A stretch of 64,000 bases of DNA from a virus (IMGVR_UViG_2690316121_000006), one strand, 5' to 3'. Positions 52,308-61,108 are shown, numbered from the stretch's first letter. The notes: a model not told the origin generated them from the letters alone. A program made the numbers and translations.

Positions 52308-52747
52308 TTGGCTGGGGTGTATGCGTTCTTGCGTTAGCCTTAGCCGATCGCTATTTGCTAAAACGCAAGGACATCACGCATTTAGAACTTGGTGATGTGG
52401 AAATTAAACCGGGTTTCATCCGGGTGCCGTTCAAGTACCGGTCTAAATTCCCGTTTTTGCGCGGCGCAACGGTCAGATATTGGATCCGCGATGTTCAGAA
52501 GCCGACGACAGTGATTGAAGGTGAACAACGTTGTCTGACGTCGGCTGAACAGGGCGAAAACAGTGAATGGTTGTACATACCCACTGAATATATGGGTAAA
52601 GGAGAGCGACTGTGGCATTTCAACGTCATGGTTACGCATGGCGACTCGTTCATTAACCCGTTGTATCGCATTTTCCCTGTTACTCAGCAAATCCGCAGAA
52701 GTTACGTAATAAATCTCGCACAGGATGTGTCAGATGACGAAAAATAA
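52304..52747 (+). CDS. holin-associated protein (LydB-like position)
   Basis: 147-aa ORF whose start overlaps the holin stop. Confidence 0.35.
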   Translation: MIGWGVCVLALALADRYLLKRKDITHLELGDVEIKPGFIRVPFKYRSKFPFLRGATVRYWIRDVQKPTTVIEGEQRCLTSAEQGENSEWLYIPTEYMGKGERLWHFNVMVTHGDSFINPLYRIFPVTQQIRRSYVINLAQDVSDDEK

Positions 52748-53336
52748 GTATGCAACGGTCGATTTTGACCAGGTTAATGAAAAGGGGCTGAAATCCCTTA
52801 TCGCGGCGATCAATAAAACCGGTGTTACGGTAATTGAGGTTGACTCCAGCAACCGCGCAACAACGAAAGATGGCGTTAAAGTTAAAACCGCAAAGCTGGT
52901 TCTTAACGACGGACAAATTCTTGCCATACAGGTAAACGATACTGGCGATATATCGTCTGTGAAGCTGAATGGAAAAGCTATTCCTAACGCTCAGTCGCCG
53001 GATATCAAGACGCTTGGTACCGTTATGGGACAGGCGGCCCGCAAAAACTCCGCAAAATTCCAGAAATCACTGATCGCCAAAGCGAAGCGTGTTGCCAATC
53101 CGGTAGACAAGAAACCGGCAGTTAAATCCAACTTTCAGCGCCTGCAAGAAGCAAAACAGCGGAATGCTCAGGTGGTTGCCGCTTATAAGTCCGCGCAGAA
53201 TTCGGTGTCTTTCAATCAACAGCAGATCACTGATTTGCGGGCGAAGCTGGATAAGGAGACAGGCCGACTCAATAACGAAAAGGCCCGAAATGGCGAACTC
53301 AAACGCCGTCTTAAGCAACTGAAAGCAGGAAATTAA
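52725..53336 (+). CDS. Hdf-like head protein, paralogous segment to DarA-like N-terminus
   Basis: 203 aa; NSAKFQKSLIAKAKR motif also present in the next ORF. Confidence 0.4.
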   Translation: MCQMTKNKYATVDFDQVNEKGLKSLIAAINKTGVTVIEVDSSNRATTKDGVKVKTAKLVLNDGQILAIQVNDTGDISSVKLNGKAIPNAQSPDIKTLGTVMGQAARKNSAKFQKSLIAKAKRVANPVDKKPAVKSNFQRLQEAKQRNAQVVAAYKSAQNSVSFNQQQITDLRAKLDKETGRLNNEKARNGELKRRLKQLKAGN

Positions 53337-53337
53337 C

Positions 53338-55257
53338 ATGGAACAGTTCAATATCAATAAAGGGGTGACGATCAAGCCTGGGCTGGACGTGCTTCCCCCG
53401 CCAGTGACTGATGATGAATATCGCGCATTAATGGCCGGTGAGGACCGCTATCTGATGACGGAATCCAACACCCTGGAGGAAATCGAGGCTACGTTCTTCT
53501 ATGACACGCCGATCCACTGGTGTGCTACGGATTTACTGGAGGCGATTAGTTCTACTCGTTTGCAGTTACACCGGACCATGCAGGCATTTGTCCGGGCATT
53601 GAACCAGAAGCTGAATGGTACCGGAATCTCTGCGGGGAGTGATAAAACGGGGGATGTTGCCCAGAGCGGCGCGCGCGCGATCGGCGGCGCTGAAATTGGT
53701 CGGGCACGTAACGTTAACGGGCTGCCGGTCCTGCCAGCCATTATTCCGCTCAGTGATGGTCAGACTATCAGCATTGTGTTTCATAGCCCGACAGCGGAAA
53801 ACCGGATCACCAATAGCGATACGCTGGTTGCTTTCCAGTTCTTACTGAATAAAAAAGACGTTACTCACACCGTTGCTCCGATGAGTGGACGTGATATGAC
53901 GCTGGCGCAGGTCACCATGAAACTTGCCAACCTTGCAGAGAAAAACTCGGCAAAATTCCAGCGGGCGCAGAAGAAGAAAAAAGCCCTTGTTGATGAAATA
54001 ACCCAACTACAGGCTGACAGTGACCAGAAAGAGGATGCCATGAGCGACCTCGCGGATCAGGTGGCAGCGGTAGAAGGGCAGAAGGCAGATCTGGAGCAGA
54101 AAATTAACGCTGTTGCATCGGAAGCGGATTCTCTTTATGAAGAGAATGAGCGTTTGCAGACGGAGATTGATCAGCTCAATCGCACTGGTGGGCGCGATAC
54201 CATTGCTCCAGCGGGGATGACTGGTGGGCACTCTCGCGCGCTGACGGATCGCCTTGCCAGTATCAAAAATCGTATGCATATGAACGGGGAAGTGACGCTC
54301 AGTAATGGTGCATCAATGAAGCAATTCATTGAGGACGGCGAAGGGTATATCCAGTTAACCGATTCGGATGGCAGCGTGTACATGATCAAGGCTAAATCCA
54401 TACAGGGTGTGGACATGGCAGATGCGATCGGCAAGCTGTTTAAAGCCTATAAAGCGGGTAATGTATCGGAATATCTGGTCCAACCAGAAGAACATAAACC
54501 GGAAAACGTCGAACCTGAACCAGCGGAGGATACCGGTAGCTCTTCGCCTGAACCAGAAGTCTCTGTAGGTGCATATCGATATGCCCTGCAAATGCGTCCG
54601 GCGGCCCCTGGCGCAATACCTGAAGGTAACAAAGCAATTCTGCCGCGCCCTGATGAAGGTGACCCGTATTATGAATATGCTCGCTACGGCATTGCTACTT
54701 ACGATACCCCGCTTTCTGATCAGCAAATGAGTGAGTACGACATGAAGTTATTGCCTCGCGAGGATTCTTTCGACTTCCTGGCGAAGACACTTACTAATGG
54801 TCCGTTTGGCAAATATGCACAAAAAGCTCTGGAGCTGGCCACCAGCTCACCAGACGAGTTCCGCGTAATGCTGAAAACTCAGTTTCAAAAAATTTTCCCC
54901 AATATTGCGTTTCCTGGTGGCGCTGGCACCGAGAAAATGGTGCAGAGCATGATCAATGCATTGCAGGCCGAAGTCGGTGAGATTACTCAGCCAGAACCGG
55001 CCCCGGCACAGCCTGATGAAACGGTTAGCGAAGCAGATGCAGAGGCTAATAAAGCCATTGAATATCTCAATAACGTGATGGATATACAAAGCACTGACAT
55101 GGCGGAGATCCGTAACGCCCGGGGCAATGTCCGGGAAGCGATTGCAGCCCTTCAGGCTGCCGGACGTTTTGAGGAAAACGAAGAGCTGGTTAACGGCGCA
55201 GCTCGCCACCTGGCTGATCTGTTGGTAGCAATCCAGAAAGCGGGGGTAGCGGCATGA
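53338..55257 (+). CDS. DarA-like capsid-internal antirestriction protein
   Basis: 639 aa (P1 DarA size recalled as 639 aa); central coiled coil; operon context with holins. Confidence 0.45.
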   Translation: MEQFNINKGVTIKPGLDVLPPPVTDDEYRALMAGEDRYLMTESNTLEEIEATFFYDTPIHWCATDLLEAISSTRLQLHRTMQAFVRALNQKLNGTGISAGSDKTGDVAQSGARAIGGAEIGRARNVNGLPVLPAIIPLSDGQTISIVFHSPTAENRITNSDTLVAFQFLLNKKDVTHTVAPMSGRDMTLAQVTMKLANLAEKNSAKFQRAQKKKKALVDEITQLQADSDQKEDAMSDLADQVAAVEGQKADLEQKINAVASEADSLYEENERLQTEIDQLNRTGGRDTIAPAGMTGGHSRALTDRLASIKNRMHMNGEVTLSNGASMKQFIEDGEGYIQLTDSDGSVYMIKAKSIQGVDMADAIGKLFKAYKAGNVSEYLVQPEEHKPENVEPEPAEDTGSSSPEPEVSVGAYRYALQMRPAAPGAIPEGNKAILPRPDEGDPYYEYARYGIATYDTPLSDQQMSEYDMKLLPREDSFDFLAKTLTNGPFGKYAQKALELATSSPDEFRVMLKTQFQKIFPNIAFPGGAGTEKMVQSMINALQAEVGEITQPEPAPAQPDETVSEADAEANKAIEYLNNVMDIQSTDMAEIRNARGNVREAIAALQAAGRFEENEELVNGAARHLADLLVAIQKAGVAA

Positions 55258-55619
55258 CACTATCAGCGATTGAGTTAATGGACCTCAGCGATAAGTTGGA
55301 TGCTCTGATGTCCAAAGCGGCTACCGCGAGTGGCATGGAGTTGCTGGATATCAGCGATGAAATTGACCAGATCATGCAACAGATGGGGTACGGCGCGTCT
55401 GGCGGCGGTAGTGGCGAGGAAAAACAACCTTCGGAACATGATGGTGTGCCAAAACTGGTTGCGGATTTCCTGGCTGATAAATTCGTCGATCAGAGCACTG
55501 ATGCATTTATCGGTACGTTACAGGACTTGAGTCAATATGTTGGCACATACATCGACCTGGACCAGGTTAAACAGCACACGGCGGCATGGATAGCCGCCAA
55601 CATTAAAGAGGCAGCATAA
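55254..55619 (+). CDS. small acidic protein of the dar operon (DdrA-like position)
   Basis: 121-aa ORF overlapping neighbours. Confidence 0.35.
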   Translation: MTLSAIELMDLSDKLDALMSKAATASGMELLDISDEIDQIMQQMGYGASGGGSGEEKQPSEHDGVPKLVADFLADKFVDQSTDAFIGTLQDLSQYVGTYIDLDQVKQHTAAWIAANIKEAA

Positions 55620-55631
55620 GGCGTAACAGGG

Positions 55632-58619
55632 ATGAGCTTAAGCGATCAGGTGGTAATGGCCACCAGCATAGAAACGCTGATCGAGCTGCTAAAGAACCTG
55701 CCCGATTATGGGCGGGTTTCGTATGTGGTGACAGCGAAGGGAGACGAGGTAAAAACAGCGTTTGATATCGTCGATGCCTCAGTTCTTTTGGTATCCAATA
55801 CTCTGGATGGGAAAATTAATCCTGACTATCCCCAGGAACTTCAACCGCGCGACCGGACCCGCGCATCCAGCCTTCTTCAGGTTAACCAGATATCCAAAGA
55901 TTTGCGGCCTGCTCAGCTTACTGATTCCGGTTTATCCAGCCATGGCGCGCCGATAATTGGTGAGGACAATGCCGTTGAGTCAGGTAATGGGCGGACCATG
56001 GGGATCATTAAAGCCTATCAGGACGGTAATGCGGATCGGTATCGGGAGTACCTGATTGAACATGCGACCGAATTCGGAATACGACCTGAAAAGGTTGAAT
56101 CAATGACGGCTCCGGTACTGGTGCGCCGCCGGTTAACGAAGGTTGACCGTGTTCAGTTTGCCAAGGACTCAAATATTTCTGATCTCCAGGAAATGGCAGC
56201 CAGTGAAAAGGCTTTTGTTGATGCCGACAGCATAACACCGGCGATGATGGCGTTGTTTAACCCGTCAGAAAGCGGAGATCTGCTTAGCCGCAGTAATGAC
56301 GCGTTTATTCGCGGATTCATGACGCAAGTTGGTGCCACACAGGCTGCTGGCCTTGTAACGGAAGATGGGCGACCAACACGGCAACTTGTAGACCGTATAC
56401 AAAACGCGATCTTTGCCAAGGCATATAAGGATGCGCGCCTGGTAAGGATGGTTGCAGAAGAACCTGATCCGGATATGCGTAATGTTCTGACGGCGCTTAA
56501 TGCGGCAGCCAATGATTTTGTCCAGATGCAGGCTTTATCAGGAGAAGCGCACAAGCAGGCTGTGACAACTATTGTTGATGGCATTGAGACAGCGGATAGC
56601 CTCGATAAAAAGGCGCTGGCGGCATTGAAAGATGCGGTAGACCTGGTAAGGCAATCGAAGGAGTCAGGCCAGCATATTACCGATGTTATTTCTCAGGGGG
56701 ATATGTTCAGCGAAACGGCCCCGGAAGTGAAAGCACTCGCGTTGTTTATCGTCGCGAATAACCGTAGCGCGAAGCGTATGGCCACCGCCTTTAAGTTGAT
56801 GGCGCAACGTATCAATGATGAGTTACAGCACCAGGGCCAGGCGCTCGGGGATATGTTTGGCGGCGGCGATGTGTCGTTACAGGATATCCTTCGCCAGGTG
56901 TCTCAGGAACTGGAAAACGAAGGTATGCAAGGGATATCCAGCGGTCTTTTCGAGTCAGCTTCCGGCGGTAGTTACAACGGTGTTGCTCCATATACCAGCT
57001 TGCTATTACATCGGGCATCCGGCATCAAAGACATTATTCATCTGATCAGGCTGCTTTCCCGTACAGATCCCCAGGATGAACAGCTTGTGCAAGTGCTTGC
57101 GCATTTTGTTCGAATGCCTGTTGCCGACGTGAATAAATGGTGCCGATTATTCGGTATCAGCAATTCGTTACTTCGCGGATTGTTAAATCACGCATCCTCC
57201 CTTGGGCGCGACGGCTTTGATGAGATAGCGCAGACGATAAAAAACGGAGATATGCCACCAGCTATTGACTGGTTTTCCATTCGCCCAACCAGGGTGAAAG
57301 CATTTCTTAGCGCGGCGCAATCAGTATCACCATTGGCAGAAATGGTTCAGAGGTTATCGCTCATATTCACAGACCATACCGCGTTGGGTGATCTGACTCT
57401 GGACGAGATGAAGGAAGCCTCCATTCAGTGGGCCGATCAACAAAATGAGGTTAACTCAGACTTCTTGCCAGCATTCAGGAAGGCCGTTAGTAAAGCGGAT
57501 GATGCCCGTGGAATTCTGAAGGCATTTAAGGCATTGCAAAGTCGTGTTAATAAACATGTCGGTGATATCGATGGGGTAACGGCGGAAGGCCGGGATATCC
57601 TTAAAGAGCACGGCATAACGCCAGAGTTTATTGATGAGATCAGGACTGATATGCAGCGTGAGGTCGTATCGTCCCTGCAAATCGTAGCCAGAGCGTTGGC
57701 GGATGCTAATCCGAAGAGTGCGGCCATTGTTAACCGTGTTATTGGTGATATTGAAGCATCGGAGGGCATGGGGGCGCTGAAACTCTTCCTTTCGCGAGCG
57801 TTTAATCCTAACGGCAATATTCTCCCCAGCATTATTGGTGAGGCTAAAAAGCATGTCAGTGAAGAAGAACTTGAGCAGCTTAACCAGCTACTCAATCGAT
57901 TTTCATATATCCCGCAGAAACGCTGGCAAATGAATCAGCGAAGTATGGATTCGGTCTACGAGAAAGTGTTATCTGCCATGAACAGTGCGATCGCCAACTC
58001 ATCTGTATCAGAAGAAAAAGCTCTTGAGTGGGCCGACTCTTTTATCACGGAAGAAGTGGAAGAAGCCCGCGCTGGACAGAATGGTGGAATAGACCTGCGC
58101 AAGGAACTTGCTGATATTTATCGCCTGACCGGCGGGAAAATATCAACCTTATCAAGGGTAATTCACCACAAGGGTAGGGCGTATGCAAATCTTAATGGTG
58201 TTGTTGCTGTCGATTTGCACGATGAAAATGCAAATGCACTGTGGCACGAGCTGGGTCATCATCTTGAGTACAGTAACCCGGGTTTGTTAGAGAAAGCCAG
58301 GTCATTCCTGAAGGCCAATGTTGAAGGGGATAAGCCATCTTTCGTTAATATCGGTGGGCGTGGCAAGCCTGAATGGTGCTTCAGATCTCGATTGAGTGAT
58401 ATTTATATGGCGAAGGTATACCCGCCTGTCTCAGTGAGTAATTCTGGTAAATTTCGACACAAATCTCCGACAATTTCCAAAACGTCAGCAACGGAAGTGT
58501 TCTCTATGGCTCTTCAGTTGTATCATGACAAAGAGGCCGCTGCCGCATCACTGATGAATGGTGACGGATTGCTGGAACTGTTATTAGGTGTGGCAAAGGA
58601 GCTAAATAATGCAGATTAA
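55632..58619 (+). CDS. large dar-operon protein (DdrB-like position) with C-terminal HExxH motif
   Basis: 995 aa; motif LWHELGHHLEY near residue 870. Confidence 0.4.
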   Translation: MSLSDQVVMATSIETLIELLKNLPDYGRVSYVVTAKGDEVKTAFDIVDASVLLVSNTLDGKINPDYPQELQPRDRTRASSLLQVNQISKDLRPAQLTDSGLSSHGAPIIGEDNAVESGNGRTMGIIKAYQDGNADRYREYLIEHATEFGIRPEKVESMTAPVLVRRRLTKVDRVQFAKDSNISDLQEMAASEKAFVDADSITPAMMALFNPSESGDLLSRSNDAFIRGFMTQVGATQAAGLVTEDGRPTRQLVDRIQNAIFAKAYKDARLVRMVAEEPDPDMRNVLTALNAAANDFVQMQALSGEAHKQAVTTIVDGIETADSLDKKALAALKDAVDLVRQSKESGQHITDVISQGDMFSETAPEVKALALFIVANNRSAKRMATAFKLMAQRINDELQHQGQALGDMFGGGDVSLQDILRQVSQELENEGMQGISSGLFESASGGSYNGVAPYTSLLLHRASGIKDIIHLIRLLSRTDPQDEQLVQVLAHFVRMPVADVNKWCRLFGISNSLLRGLLNHASSLGRDGFDEIAQTIKNGDMPPAIDWFSIRPTRVKAFLSAAQSVSPLAEMVQRLSLIFTDHTALGDLTLDEMKEASIQWADQQNEVNSDFLPAFRKAVSKADDARGILKAFKALQSRVNKHVGDIDGVTAEGRDILKEHGITPEFIDEIRTDMQREVVSSLQIVARALADANPKSAAIVNRVIGDIEASEGMGALKLFLSRAFNPNGNILPSIIGEAKKHVSEEELEQLNQLLNRFSYIPQKRWQMNQRSMDSVYEKVLSAMNSAIANSSVSEEKALEWADSFITEEVEEARAGQNGGIDLRKELADIYRLTGGKISTLSRVIHHKGRAYANLNGVVAVDLHDENANALWHELGHHLEYSNPGLLEKARSFLKANVEGDKPSFVNIGGRGKPEWCFRSRLSDIYMAKVYPPVSVSNSGKFRHKSPTISKTSATEVFSMALQLYHDKEAAAASLMNGDGLLELLLGVAKELNNAD

Positions 58620-58920
58620 AATCGCAGCGCCATTAGGCGGAGATGCCATTATCGAATTTGATGATAATGAAGAAGTTTCCGGGCGTTTAAGCATTATCTC
58701 CGGTGACATTACCGAGGACATGATCGCTGAAGCCATAGCTGGGGCAAATCCCAATAGCTATATGGGATTCGTTAACACCCTTGATGCCCCCGCAAGTGAT
58801 GTTCTCCGAACGCTGCATCTTTACGCTGGCTGGTTTGTTGATTGGCCAGCAGTAGATGGTGGCGATGAGGACGACGACGACGATGATTTTGGTGATCATG
58901 TAGACCAGATCGTATATTGA
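58609..58920 (+). CDS. small protein with poly-Asp C-terminus, last gene of dar operon
   Basis: 103 aa ending GGDEDDDDDDFGDHVDQIVY; followed by terminator. Confidence 0.35.
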   Translation: MQIKIAAPLGGDAIIEFDDNEEVSGRLSIISGDITEDMIAEAIAGANPNSYMGFVNTLDAPASDVLRTLHLYAGWFVDWPAVDGGDEDDDDDDFGDHVDQIVY

Positions 58921-58922
58921 AG

Positions 58923-58951
58923 AAATCCCGCCAATCGGCGGGATTTTTTTT
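58923..58951. terminator. bidirectional intrinsic terminator
   Basis: AAATCCCGCC-AATC-GGCGGGATTT followed by TTTTTTT. Confidence 0.55.
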
Positions 58952-59738
58952 AATCGCTTTCCACTTCTTCCGTGGTGTTTTCTTGCAGTTCTGTTAATGC
59001 AGCACGACATAGGTTCCGGGCATTGGCTATAGCCACACTTTTGACTTCATCCGTCATCGTGCAGGTAATGTACTGATCGAGTTCTTCAGCGCGGATGATG
59101 CTTTTGCCAATCAGAAACTGTATTTGCCAGAGCAGATCGGCATCCATAATCAGAATTTCTGCCGGGCCTTCAGGGCCAGCCGGGAAGGAAACATAAGACT
59201 GTTTGCCCAGGCCGATAACTCGACAACTTGCTTCAAGAATTGCGCGCTTGAGGTCTGACTTTGTAACGGAAACAGGTTGGTTTTCACCAGTGATTATGCC
59301 GTTGATATGGAAGTGGAAGGGCATGTAGCTTGAAATTCGCTCTACTTTCCATACGCCAGCAAGCGATCCTTCATGCAGCACAATGGGGGTAACCGCGAGT
59401 TTCATCTCACCATATAACTGCTGGCAGATAGCTGGATTGCTGAATACATCCAAAGGTTCACACTCAAACAGCGGCGCAATCTGCATGAGGTCCATCATGG
59501 TCATACCAGGGGTACGAGCAGTAATGAATCTGCGCATGCCAGTATCCATTGTGCGCCAGATAGCTACACCATGCTTTTTGCTCACTTCTTCAGTAAAGCC
59601 AAGGTGGCACATGATGGTTTTTTCGATAGCCAGATCAGAGATCGAAACCTTTTCGCCAGGCACACCATCATTATTGATGGTCACTTCGACACTCTGACCA
59701 TTACGCAGGCGGTATTGAATTGCTTTAGTATTTTCCAC
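58950..59738 (-). CDS. hypothetical protein, downstream partner of the DUF2829-domain gene
   Basis: 262-aa ORF with no recognisable motif; 7-nt gap to upstream gene. Confidence 0.4.
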   Translation of the reverse strand: MENTKAIQYRLRNGQSVEVTINNDGVPGEKVSISDLAIEKTIMCHLGFTEEVSKKHGVAIWRTMDTGMRRFITARTPGMTMMDLMQIAPLFECEPLDVFSNPAICQQLYGEMKLAVTPIVLHEGSLAGVWKVERISSYMPFHFHINGIITGENQPVSVTKSDLKRAILEASCRVIGLGKQSYVSFPAGPEGPAEILIMDADLLWQIQFLIGKSIIRAEELDQYITCTMTDEVKSVAIANARNLCRAALTELQENTTEEVESD

Positions 59739-59744
59739 GTTAAA

Positions 59745-60542
59745 TCACTCCACTACAAACCAGTCACATGCCAGTAAGTCGCCTACAGAAGGAACCCACG
59801 GAACAACTACACCTTGTGCATTTTTTAAGGCGAAATAAGCACCATACGGAACGAGGTCACTGGGGAAATATCCCTTAATGGCTTCCATTCGTGCCGGGTA
59901 CTGCCCTTCAGGAACCAGCCAGCAGAATTGGTTTTCGCCGTTCCACCCGCGTCGAGCAACTTTCTTGCCATCCTTCAGCCACATCAGCGCGTCAGAAAAG
60001 TCGGCTGCTTCAAGGTCGATTTCTTCTTGTAGAGTAGCGATACCGCCAGCAGAAATAGTTACGTCCCTGGCTGTAATGAATGTCACCCCGTTGTGACCTT
60101 CAATGCTGAGCAATGCCCCATTTTCGAAGAAGTCGTTAGTCCGACTAAAGCCTTCTTCAAATGTTTTTTCTGGTGAATAGGACAGAGATCCGTCCTCATA
60201 AGCGACCAGATATCCGCCAATTTCTGGTCGGTGTTTTTGCAAAAACATTTTATCAACATGGACTTTTACCCCTTCTGGCTCAACGACTTCGATGTTGCAA
60301 AGAAGGACCACATCCATTAGGGCGATAATTTCGATATCTTTGATTTTTGAGGCACGAACTGTTTTATGGCTTTTGTATTTTGGAAGTGCCGTCAAAAGCT
60401 CTTTCGTTGTCATATTATTCATAGTCTTTCCTCTGCTTAAAACCTGGTGTATTGCGCCTTCAGGTGGGCCAGGAATGTTTTCCCACCAGCGAAAGCAATA
60501 TCTCGGGGTGTTCTTTTCGTGAAAAGCGCGTGCCATTGCCAA
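59745..60542 (-). CDS. two-domain protein with C-terminal DUF2829 (Tad2-like) module; probable start at MNNMTT near 60422
   Basis: C-terminal FSDALMWLKDGKKVARRGWNG ... PWVPSVGDLLACDWFVVE matches DUF2829 pattern; good RBS before internal Met. Confidence 0.45.
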   Translation of the reverse strand: MAMARAFHEKNTPRYCFRWWENIPGPPEGAIHQVLSRGKTMNNMTTKELLTALPKYKSHKTVRASKIKDIEIIALMDVVLLCNIEVVEPEGVKVHVDKMFLQKHRPEIGGYLVAYEDGSLSYSPEKTFEEGFSRTNDFFENGALLSIEGHNGVTFITARDVTISAGGIATLQEEIDLEAADFSDALMWLKDGKKVARRGWNGENQFCWLVPEGQYPARMEAIKGYFPSDLVPYGAYFALKNAQGVVVPWVPSVGDLLACDWFVVE

Positions 60543-60619
60543 CTTTGGCGTTTTTTAGCGAGTTCGTGCTTTTGTTGGCGTCTGGACCACCGCTTTTCTT
60601 TCAATCGTTTTTTACTCAT

Positions 60620-61108
60620 TCAAAACGGAATATCGTCGTCAAAGTCCATTGGAGGTTCGTTATTGGCGTTGCTCTGAGGTTTACCGCCACCACTGTATTG
60701 CTGGTGGTTTTGAGGTTGGTTTGATTGCCCCCAGCCATTTGAGGACTGTGAATCGTCACGGCGAGCGCCGATCATTTGCATGGTGCCGCCCTGGCTGACG
60801 ATAATTTCCGTCGTGTAACGTTCTACACCGGCGTCATCTGCCCACTTACGGGTTTTAAGTTTCCCTTCGATGTAGACCTGAGAACCTTTTCGTAAATACT
60901 CACTCGCAATTTCAGCAAGTTTTCCGAACAAAACGACTTTATGCCATTCTGTTTGCTCTTTCTGTTGGCCCGTTTGCTTGTCGCGCCATGATTCATTCGT
61001 TGCGATGCTGAGTCTTCCGACCGCGCCGCCATTTGGTATATACCTGATCTCCGGGTCTTGCCCTAGGGTACCAATCAGGATGACTTTGTTTACACCGCGT
61101 TGTGCCAC
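60620..61108 (-). CDS. ssb: single-stranded DNA-binding protein SSB
   Basis: 162 aa; OB-fold N-terminus [23 protein letters not shown]; Gly/Gln-rich linker; C-terminal acidic tail DDDIPF. Confidence 0.9.

Follow-up and report, generated by a model that had tools for sequence, protein, structure and literature searches.

The window analyzed here is a 64,000-nucleotide stretch of viral DNA (IMGVR_UViG_2690316121_000006), and the gene in question is an open reading frame (ORF) on its plus strand at 55632-58619, which starts with ATG and comprises 995 codons and a stop. By sequence comparison, this ORF is the ortholog of ddrB in the darA operon of phage P1. It is 96.6% identical in nucleotide sequence to P1 ddrB (NC_005856) and 97.6% identical to that of RCS47, in both cases over 100% of its length, and whole-length matches were found in 19 P1-like phage records at 96.3 to 97.6% nucleotide identity. 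The window and P1 proteins are likewise 96.3% identical, differing at 37 of 995 positions, and the gene order lydC-lydA-lydB-hdf-darA-ddrA-ddrB-hxr is common to the window and to the P1 and JL22 records. A preliminary description had singled out this product as the largest dar-operon protein, which is true of the darA operon; DarB (2255 amino acids [aa]) is larger and is encoded in a separate operon outside the window. The parts of ddrB to which the text refers are as follows.

55632..58619, plus strand: ddrB coding sequence (995 aa and stop), ortholog of phage P1 DdrB, from the ORF list and the P1 comparison.
55632..56951, plus strand: conserved module at the N terminus (aa 1 to ~440), with the ParB domain inside it, from alignment with eight homologs of 850 to 1014 aa.
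55737..56132, plus strand: ddrB-like ParB superfamily domain (aa 36 to 167), Pfam PF18763, E = 6.7e-39.
56979..57956, plus strand: hypervariable, mostly helical middle region (aa ~450 to 775), from the homolog alignment, and helical in a low-confidence whole-protein model.
57912..58616, plus strand: predicted C-terminal zincin-like metallopeptidase domain as modeled (aa 761 to 995), with a conserved core from about aa 776.
58245..58259, plus strand: HELGH (H872, E873, H876), the predicted two zinc-binding histidines and catalytic base, invariant in 153/153 homologs and on helix 868-881 of the model.
58266..58268, plus strand: E879, the glutamate of HELGHHLE and the possible third ligand of the preliminary description, kept in 152/153 and on the same helix as the histidines.
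58371..58373, plus strand: E914, a conserved glutamate (130/135 ungapped homologs) that starts the second strand of a beta-hairpin (model strand aa 914 to 919).
58404..58421, plus strand: Y925-M-A-K-V-Y930 (family consensus PYVGKVY), tyrosines upstream of the glutamate helix, Y925 invariant and Y930 at least 90% conserved.
58422..58481, plus strand: inserted stretch of about 20 aa peculiar to DdrB of the P1 type (aa 931 to 950), between Y930 and E955, gapped in most homologs.
58494..58505, plus strand: E955-V-F-S958, an "EXXA-like" motif with the predicted third zinc ligand, at the start of helix aa 956 to 962, from the curated alignment described below and the model.

The motif LWHELGHHLEY, placed by the preliminary description near the C terminus, indeed lies at aa 870 to 880 (nucleotides 58239-58271), with HELGH at aa 872 to 876, 120 residues from the end of the protein. 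A lack of conservation in orthologs had been named in advance as one outcome that would refute the reading. A word-indexed homology search returned near-identical fragments only, so that an exhaustive HMMER search was needed, in which aa 761 to 995 were run against 1.84 billion representatives of 50% identity clusters. This gave 356 proteins at E ≤ 1e-3, and motif counts were taken from the 153 domain matches among these representatives that span HExxH. H872, E873, and H876 were kept in all 153, and E914, Y925, K928, and Y930 were also strongly conserved. In a curated alignment (A1) of 44 sequences with 21 to 39% identity to the window protein, H872, E873, H876, Y925, and E955 were invariant, and R849, E879, E914, Y930, S958, and G986 were conserved at 90% or above. 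The domain appears once in the window, in that no other ORF there matches the hidden Markov model (HMM) of the family, and P1 DarB has neither an HExxH nor a match to that HMM.

The number of HExxH motifs expected by chance in a protein of the composition of DdrB is 0.028, and this one is the sole HExxH in the open frames of at least 150 aa, which sum to 20,839 aa across the window. We judge the motif real chiefly on its conservation, which is a stronger argument than the chance expectation. A fortuitous motif in a nonenzymatic helical protein could be argued from the shortness of HExxH and from the want of curated family models matching the region, yet the expectation of 0.028, the invariance in 153 homologs, and a confident zincin-like model refute that reading, to which we attach next to no probability.

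Aligned to P1 DdrB, the window protein is identical at all predicted catalytic residues; the 16 substitutions in the C-terminal domain fall at none of the conserved positions. The amino acid changes relative to P1 (window 55632-58616 against 6001-8985 of P1 locus L002) concentrate in this domain, with 16 in 235 codons versus 4 in the first 170, and synonymous changes in ddrB are more evenly distributed than these.

The preliminary description had spoken of a canonical zincin arrangement and had called for structure prediction and fold comparison of the C-terminal part. AlphaFold2 run on the whole protein without an alignment gave a predicted local distance difference test score (pLDDT) of 39.3, a model discarded as unusable. 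The C-terminal domain folded with alignment A1 reached a pLDDT of 91.9 and a predicted template modeling score of 0.89. In this model, four helices are followed by short strands at aa 842 to 845 and 857 to 860, the HExxH helix at aa 868 to 881, a helix at aa 883 to 896, a beta-hairpin, a helix at aa 956 to 962 directly after E955, and two terminal helices. The overall fold as modeled, a beta-sheet with an active-site helix and a glutamate helix, resembles solved zincins. The interpretation first suggested is supported, with a correction as to the third ligand (see below). The best structural neighbors of the model are the group of lethal factor, Pro-Pro endopeptidase (PPEP), and MtfA, at 12 to 15% identity. 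DdrB from about aa 776 to 995 is thus predicted, on the model, to be a gluzincin domain.

A zincin fold may also serve as a binding or scaffolding module rather than as an enzyme, as precedents in the lethal factor-like N-terminal domains (lethal factor, edema factor, Certhrax) and in MtfA binding to Mlc illustrate. For DdrB we regard this as quite unlikely, given that the invariance of the two histidines and the glutamate of HExxH, together with the downstream glutamate and tyrosine, across 153 diverse homologs marks an active site that has been maintained, and that 0 of the 16 domain substitutions relative to P1 touch catalytic positions.

In MtfA, helix alpha-5 supplies two zinc ligands, H148 and H152 of HEXXH, and helix alpha-7 the third, E211 in an EXXA motif; in lethal factor the ligands are His686, His690, and Glu735, on two separate helices. 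The preliminary description had noted a possible third ligand near the motif, E879. This residue is conserved, but it sits on the same helix as the histidines, and it may instead have a second-shell or substrate role. The next helix offers no conserved acidic residue, position 887 being A, E, Q, or K across homologs. E955, rather than E879, is our candidate for the third zinc ligand, a probable one as judged from alignment, model, and analogy: it is invariant, begins a later helix, and has a motif and spacing like those of MtfA. The DdrB motif E-V-F-S-M-A-L-Q-L-Y stands where MtfA has E-C-F-A-V-L-S-E-Y-F, and in the family the second histidine most often lies 63 residues before the conserved glutamate, against 59 in MtfA. 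A tyrosine is found most often 6 residues before that glutamate, against 7 in E. coli MtfA (Y204 and E211). Y925 and Y930, candidate catalytic tyrosines, would occupy the place of that residue in lethal factor-type enzymes.

The P1-type proteins depart from this spacing, with 25 residues between tyrosine and glutamate versus the family mode of 6, owing to the insertion of about 20 aa at 931 to 950. Model confidence is lowest in this insertion (PPVSVSNSGKFRHKSPTISK), at a block pLDDT of 64 to 80. The insertion holds one of only two Pro-Pro pairs in DdrB (aa 931-932, the other being 542-543), which we remark on because the best fold matches include Pro-Pro endopeptidases.

That DdrB has a metallopeptidase domain is already known. 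The P1 RefSeq record for ddrB reads "unknown protein function; possible metallopeptidase," the phage JL22 record gives the product as "putative metallopeptidase," and Iyer et al. 2017 (PMC5512222; Iyer, Burroughs, Anand, de Souza, Aravind) identified a C-terminal zincin-like metallopeptidase (MPTase) domain in P1 DdrB. In view of this annotation and published discussion, the HExxH result is a confirmation and not a discovery. What is added here is a confident domain model, placed near the lethal factor, MtfA, and PPEP group, together with a candidate third zinc ligand in E955, candidate catalytic tyrosines, and family-wide conservation figures. These additions supply precise residues to mutate and leave the understanding of the Dar system unchanged.

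The remainder of the protein is of two kinds. Over aa 26 to 425, 42 to 77% of residues per 25-residue window match the window protein in the eight homologs of 850 to 1014 aa (about 20% over aa 1 to 25), and in the middle region mostly 4 to 17% do. The middle third is thus hypervariable between two conserved modules, and may serve as a rapidly evolving surface for interactions or as a mere linker. Pfam-A recognized only the N-terminal ParB domain, with no match in aa 761 to 995 at E ≤ 10, which places the peptidase clade outside the curated profiles. NCBIfam had no match for DdrB, the PHROGs family is one of unknown function, and a Pfam scan of the 44 family members produced no consistent match to a peptidase family. 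The Pfam models ATLF and Peptidase_M90 did not match the window protein, and ATLF was touched by only 1 of the 44 (E = 0.04).

Elsewhere in the family, the domain follows an InPase and two ParB domains, or a PBECR2 nuclease, an InPase, and a ParB domain. It also follows head-morphogenesis domains of the Phage_Mu_F type, in some proteins (P0024, P0077, P0079) as two or three copies of itself, and stands at the C terminus of large uncharacterized Vibrio Ackermannviridae proteins. One homolog of 1081 aa (P0112) is a portal protein of the Mu type (Portal_Mu in Pfam, E = 1.3e-85) with a DdrB-type peptidase domain at its C terminus, aa 877 to 1041. All of these settings of the peptidase domain are head-associated or ejected proteins.

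DdrB itself, a head-internal component of Dar (defense against restriction), is a virion protein, detected by 39 peptides with 59.5% coverage in the virion proteome, and ddrB is nonessential. Incorporation of the Dar proteins follows that of Hdf and DarA, in a fixed order, and at ejection they leave together with the DNA. In the account of Iyer et al. 2017, which cites earlier reports, DdrB is processed to ~76 kDa before packaging; a fragment of that size corresponds to ~695 DdrB residues, counted from either end. Those authors proposed that the MPTase catalyzes autoproteolysis of DdrB and that the ParB-containing N-terminal fragment is the one packaged.

We consider it rather probable that the gluzincin is active and acts on DdrB itself, perhaps also on neighboring head-internal proteins, either within the capsid or at ejection. 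The motif, its conservation, the fold as predicted, and the domain architectures are results of the analysis, and the zinc ligands, catalytic activity, and substrate are inferred. H872 and H876 of HELGH, together with E955 on the later helix, would bind zinc, E873 would act as the general base, and Y925 or Y930 would stand at the position of the catalytic tyrosine. The domain would then cut DdrB, and perhaps its neighbors, inside the capsid or upon ejection, as Iyer et al. proposed, and the cut would release the ParB-containing N-terminal module, which accompanies the DNA. Self-processing is the best supported role because the active site is maintained, because in homologs the domain either caps cargo modules and head anchors or sits between them, and because processing of DdrB has been reported.

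Several observations weigh against this view. No conserved candidate for a cleavage site was found upstream of the domain in the hypervariable region of the eight homologs (aa ~450 to 775), nor a conserved cleavage motif where a 76-kDa N-terminal fragment would end. The 59.5% coverage of DdrB in the virion proteome comes with neither a specified packaged part nor a peptide map. The P1 prohead protease Pro, which is T4 gp21-like, could process DdrB in place of the domain. At the level of sequence, no Pfam, NCBIfam, or Protein Data Bank (PDB) match backs the peptidase assignment, phmmer and profile HMM searches against PDB sequences having given no meaningful match and no peptidase. The pairing of E955 with E211-C-F-A of MtfA by hhalign came at low confidence (probability 8%); runs against a single MtfA sequence or a low-diversity MtfA alignment gave 6 to 8%, which makes this pairing a lead and not a statistical result. 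Finally, a literature search found no paper in which the DdrB peptidase is tested experimentally.

The presence of Pro bears on a different division of labor, in which Pro trims DdrB and the DdrB peptidase processes other head-internal proteins (DarA, DarB, or Ulx). DarA is believed to be proteolytically processed, P1 has the gp21-like protease, normal incorporation of DarB needs DdrB, and the Dar proteins enter in a fixed order, all of which fit such a scheme. However, no data tie DdrB to the processing of DarA, and direct fusions of the domain to cargo or anchor modules, seen in homologs, point to its own polypeptide as the substrate. We therefore hold this arrangement to be unlikely.

The preliminary description had suggested that the peptidase cleaves a host defense factor or itself. 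Of the two, self-cleavage is the likelier, and the host factor is disfavored. As a host-directed effector, the domain would cleave a host restriction component after ejection, for example a subunit of a type I restriction-modification system, and so bring about antirestriction. Host-targeting toxins, anthrax lethal factor for one, are indeed among the nearest solved folds, as are secreted Pro-Pro endopeptidases, and for the metallopeptidase domains of polyvalent proteins Iyer et al. 2017 name action as effectors among the possibilities. However, Dar protection acts only in cis: it covers the DNA packaged in the same virion, and coinfecting Dar-negative phages are still restricted. A diffusible protease that destroyed the restriction enzyme should protect in trans too, and for this reason a host-directed protease seems improbable to us. 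The virion-proteome work, moreover, credits DdrB with helping DarB to be added to the capsid.

Cis-only protection would be compatible with a lethal factor- or PPEP-like effector that is held on the incoming DNA by the ParB module or the Dar complex and that clips type I restriction subunits only where these are in contact with the same DNA. This is a speculative proposal, which we rate well below self-processing. If it were true, cis-only protection would be explained enzymatically rather than by shielding, and the portal and MuF-anchor fusions would mark a general class of DNA-tethered, injected anti-defense proteases. Since the 1980s it has been an open question how Dar protects incoming P1 DNA from type I restriction, and the DdrB peptidase domain is one of few Dar components with a predicted, directly testable catalytic site.

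The genes flanking ddrB are those expected of a P1-type darA operon.

52725-53336, plus strand: hdf, from the ORF list, with length and order as in the P1 and JL22 records.
53338-55257, plus strand: darA, from the ORF list, with length and order as in the P1 and JL22 records.
55254-55619, plus strand: ddrA, from the ORF list, with length and order as in the P1 and JL22 records.
58609-58920, plus strand: hxr (Xre-like), from the ORF list and the P1 annotation, its start overlapping the end of ddrB by 11 nucleotides.

The start codon of hxr lies within the last 11 nucleotides of ddrB (58609-58619, ATGCAGATTAA), an overlap which suggests that the Xre-like gene is translationally coupled to ddrB. 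Inside ddrB, an antisense ORF of 143 aa occupies 56153-56584 on the minus strand, where P1 annotates iddB ("internal to ddrB"). On the 3' side of hxr, window positions 58950-61108 hold minus-strand ORFs at 58950-59738 and 59745-60542, followed by ssb at 60620-61108, and lack the IS1 element that P1 carries at the same place. This region matches Salmonella phage SJ46 over 100% of its length at 97.7%, and P1 covers only 68% of it. The absence of IS1 together with the SJ46 match indicates that the element is a P1-like phage of the IS1-free type.

Among known systems, the closest is P1 DdrB itself (YP_006491.1, P1_gp022), which has the same 995 aa, the same operon position, and identical predicted catalytic residues; 37 substitutions set the window protein apart from it, and the C-terminal domain accounts for 16 of these. 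The polyvalent-protein MPTases of Iyer et al. 2017 share with the present family the fusions to ddrB-ParB, InPase, PBECR2, and MuF, and the multidomain setting in phages is found here as well, with homologs that also carry Phage_Mu_F and Portal_Mu. Iyer et al. stated that these MPTase clades are not specifically related to previously defined zincin clades, whereas here the lethal factor, PPEP, and MtfA group is nearest in structure. MtfA (M90) and lethal factor with PPEP (M34) are only 12 to 15% identical to the DdrB domain, with no significant sequence or profile match. The DdrB family differs from them by an extra beta-hairpin, and the P1 type adds the 20-aa insertion before the glutamate helix. 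ArdC of IncW plasmids is likewise an antirestriction protein that enters with the DNA and has a C-terminal HExxH peptidase domain. ArdC, however, has an N-terminal ArdC-N domain that binds single-stranded DNA, in place of which the Pfam scan of DdrB found ddrB-ParB and no ArdC-N. ArdC is delivered by conjugation and arrives full length; DdrB comes out of a phage head and is reportedly processed.
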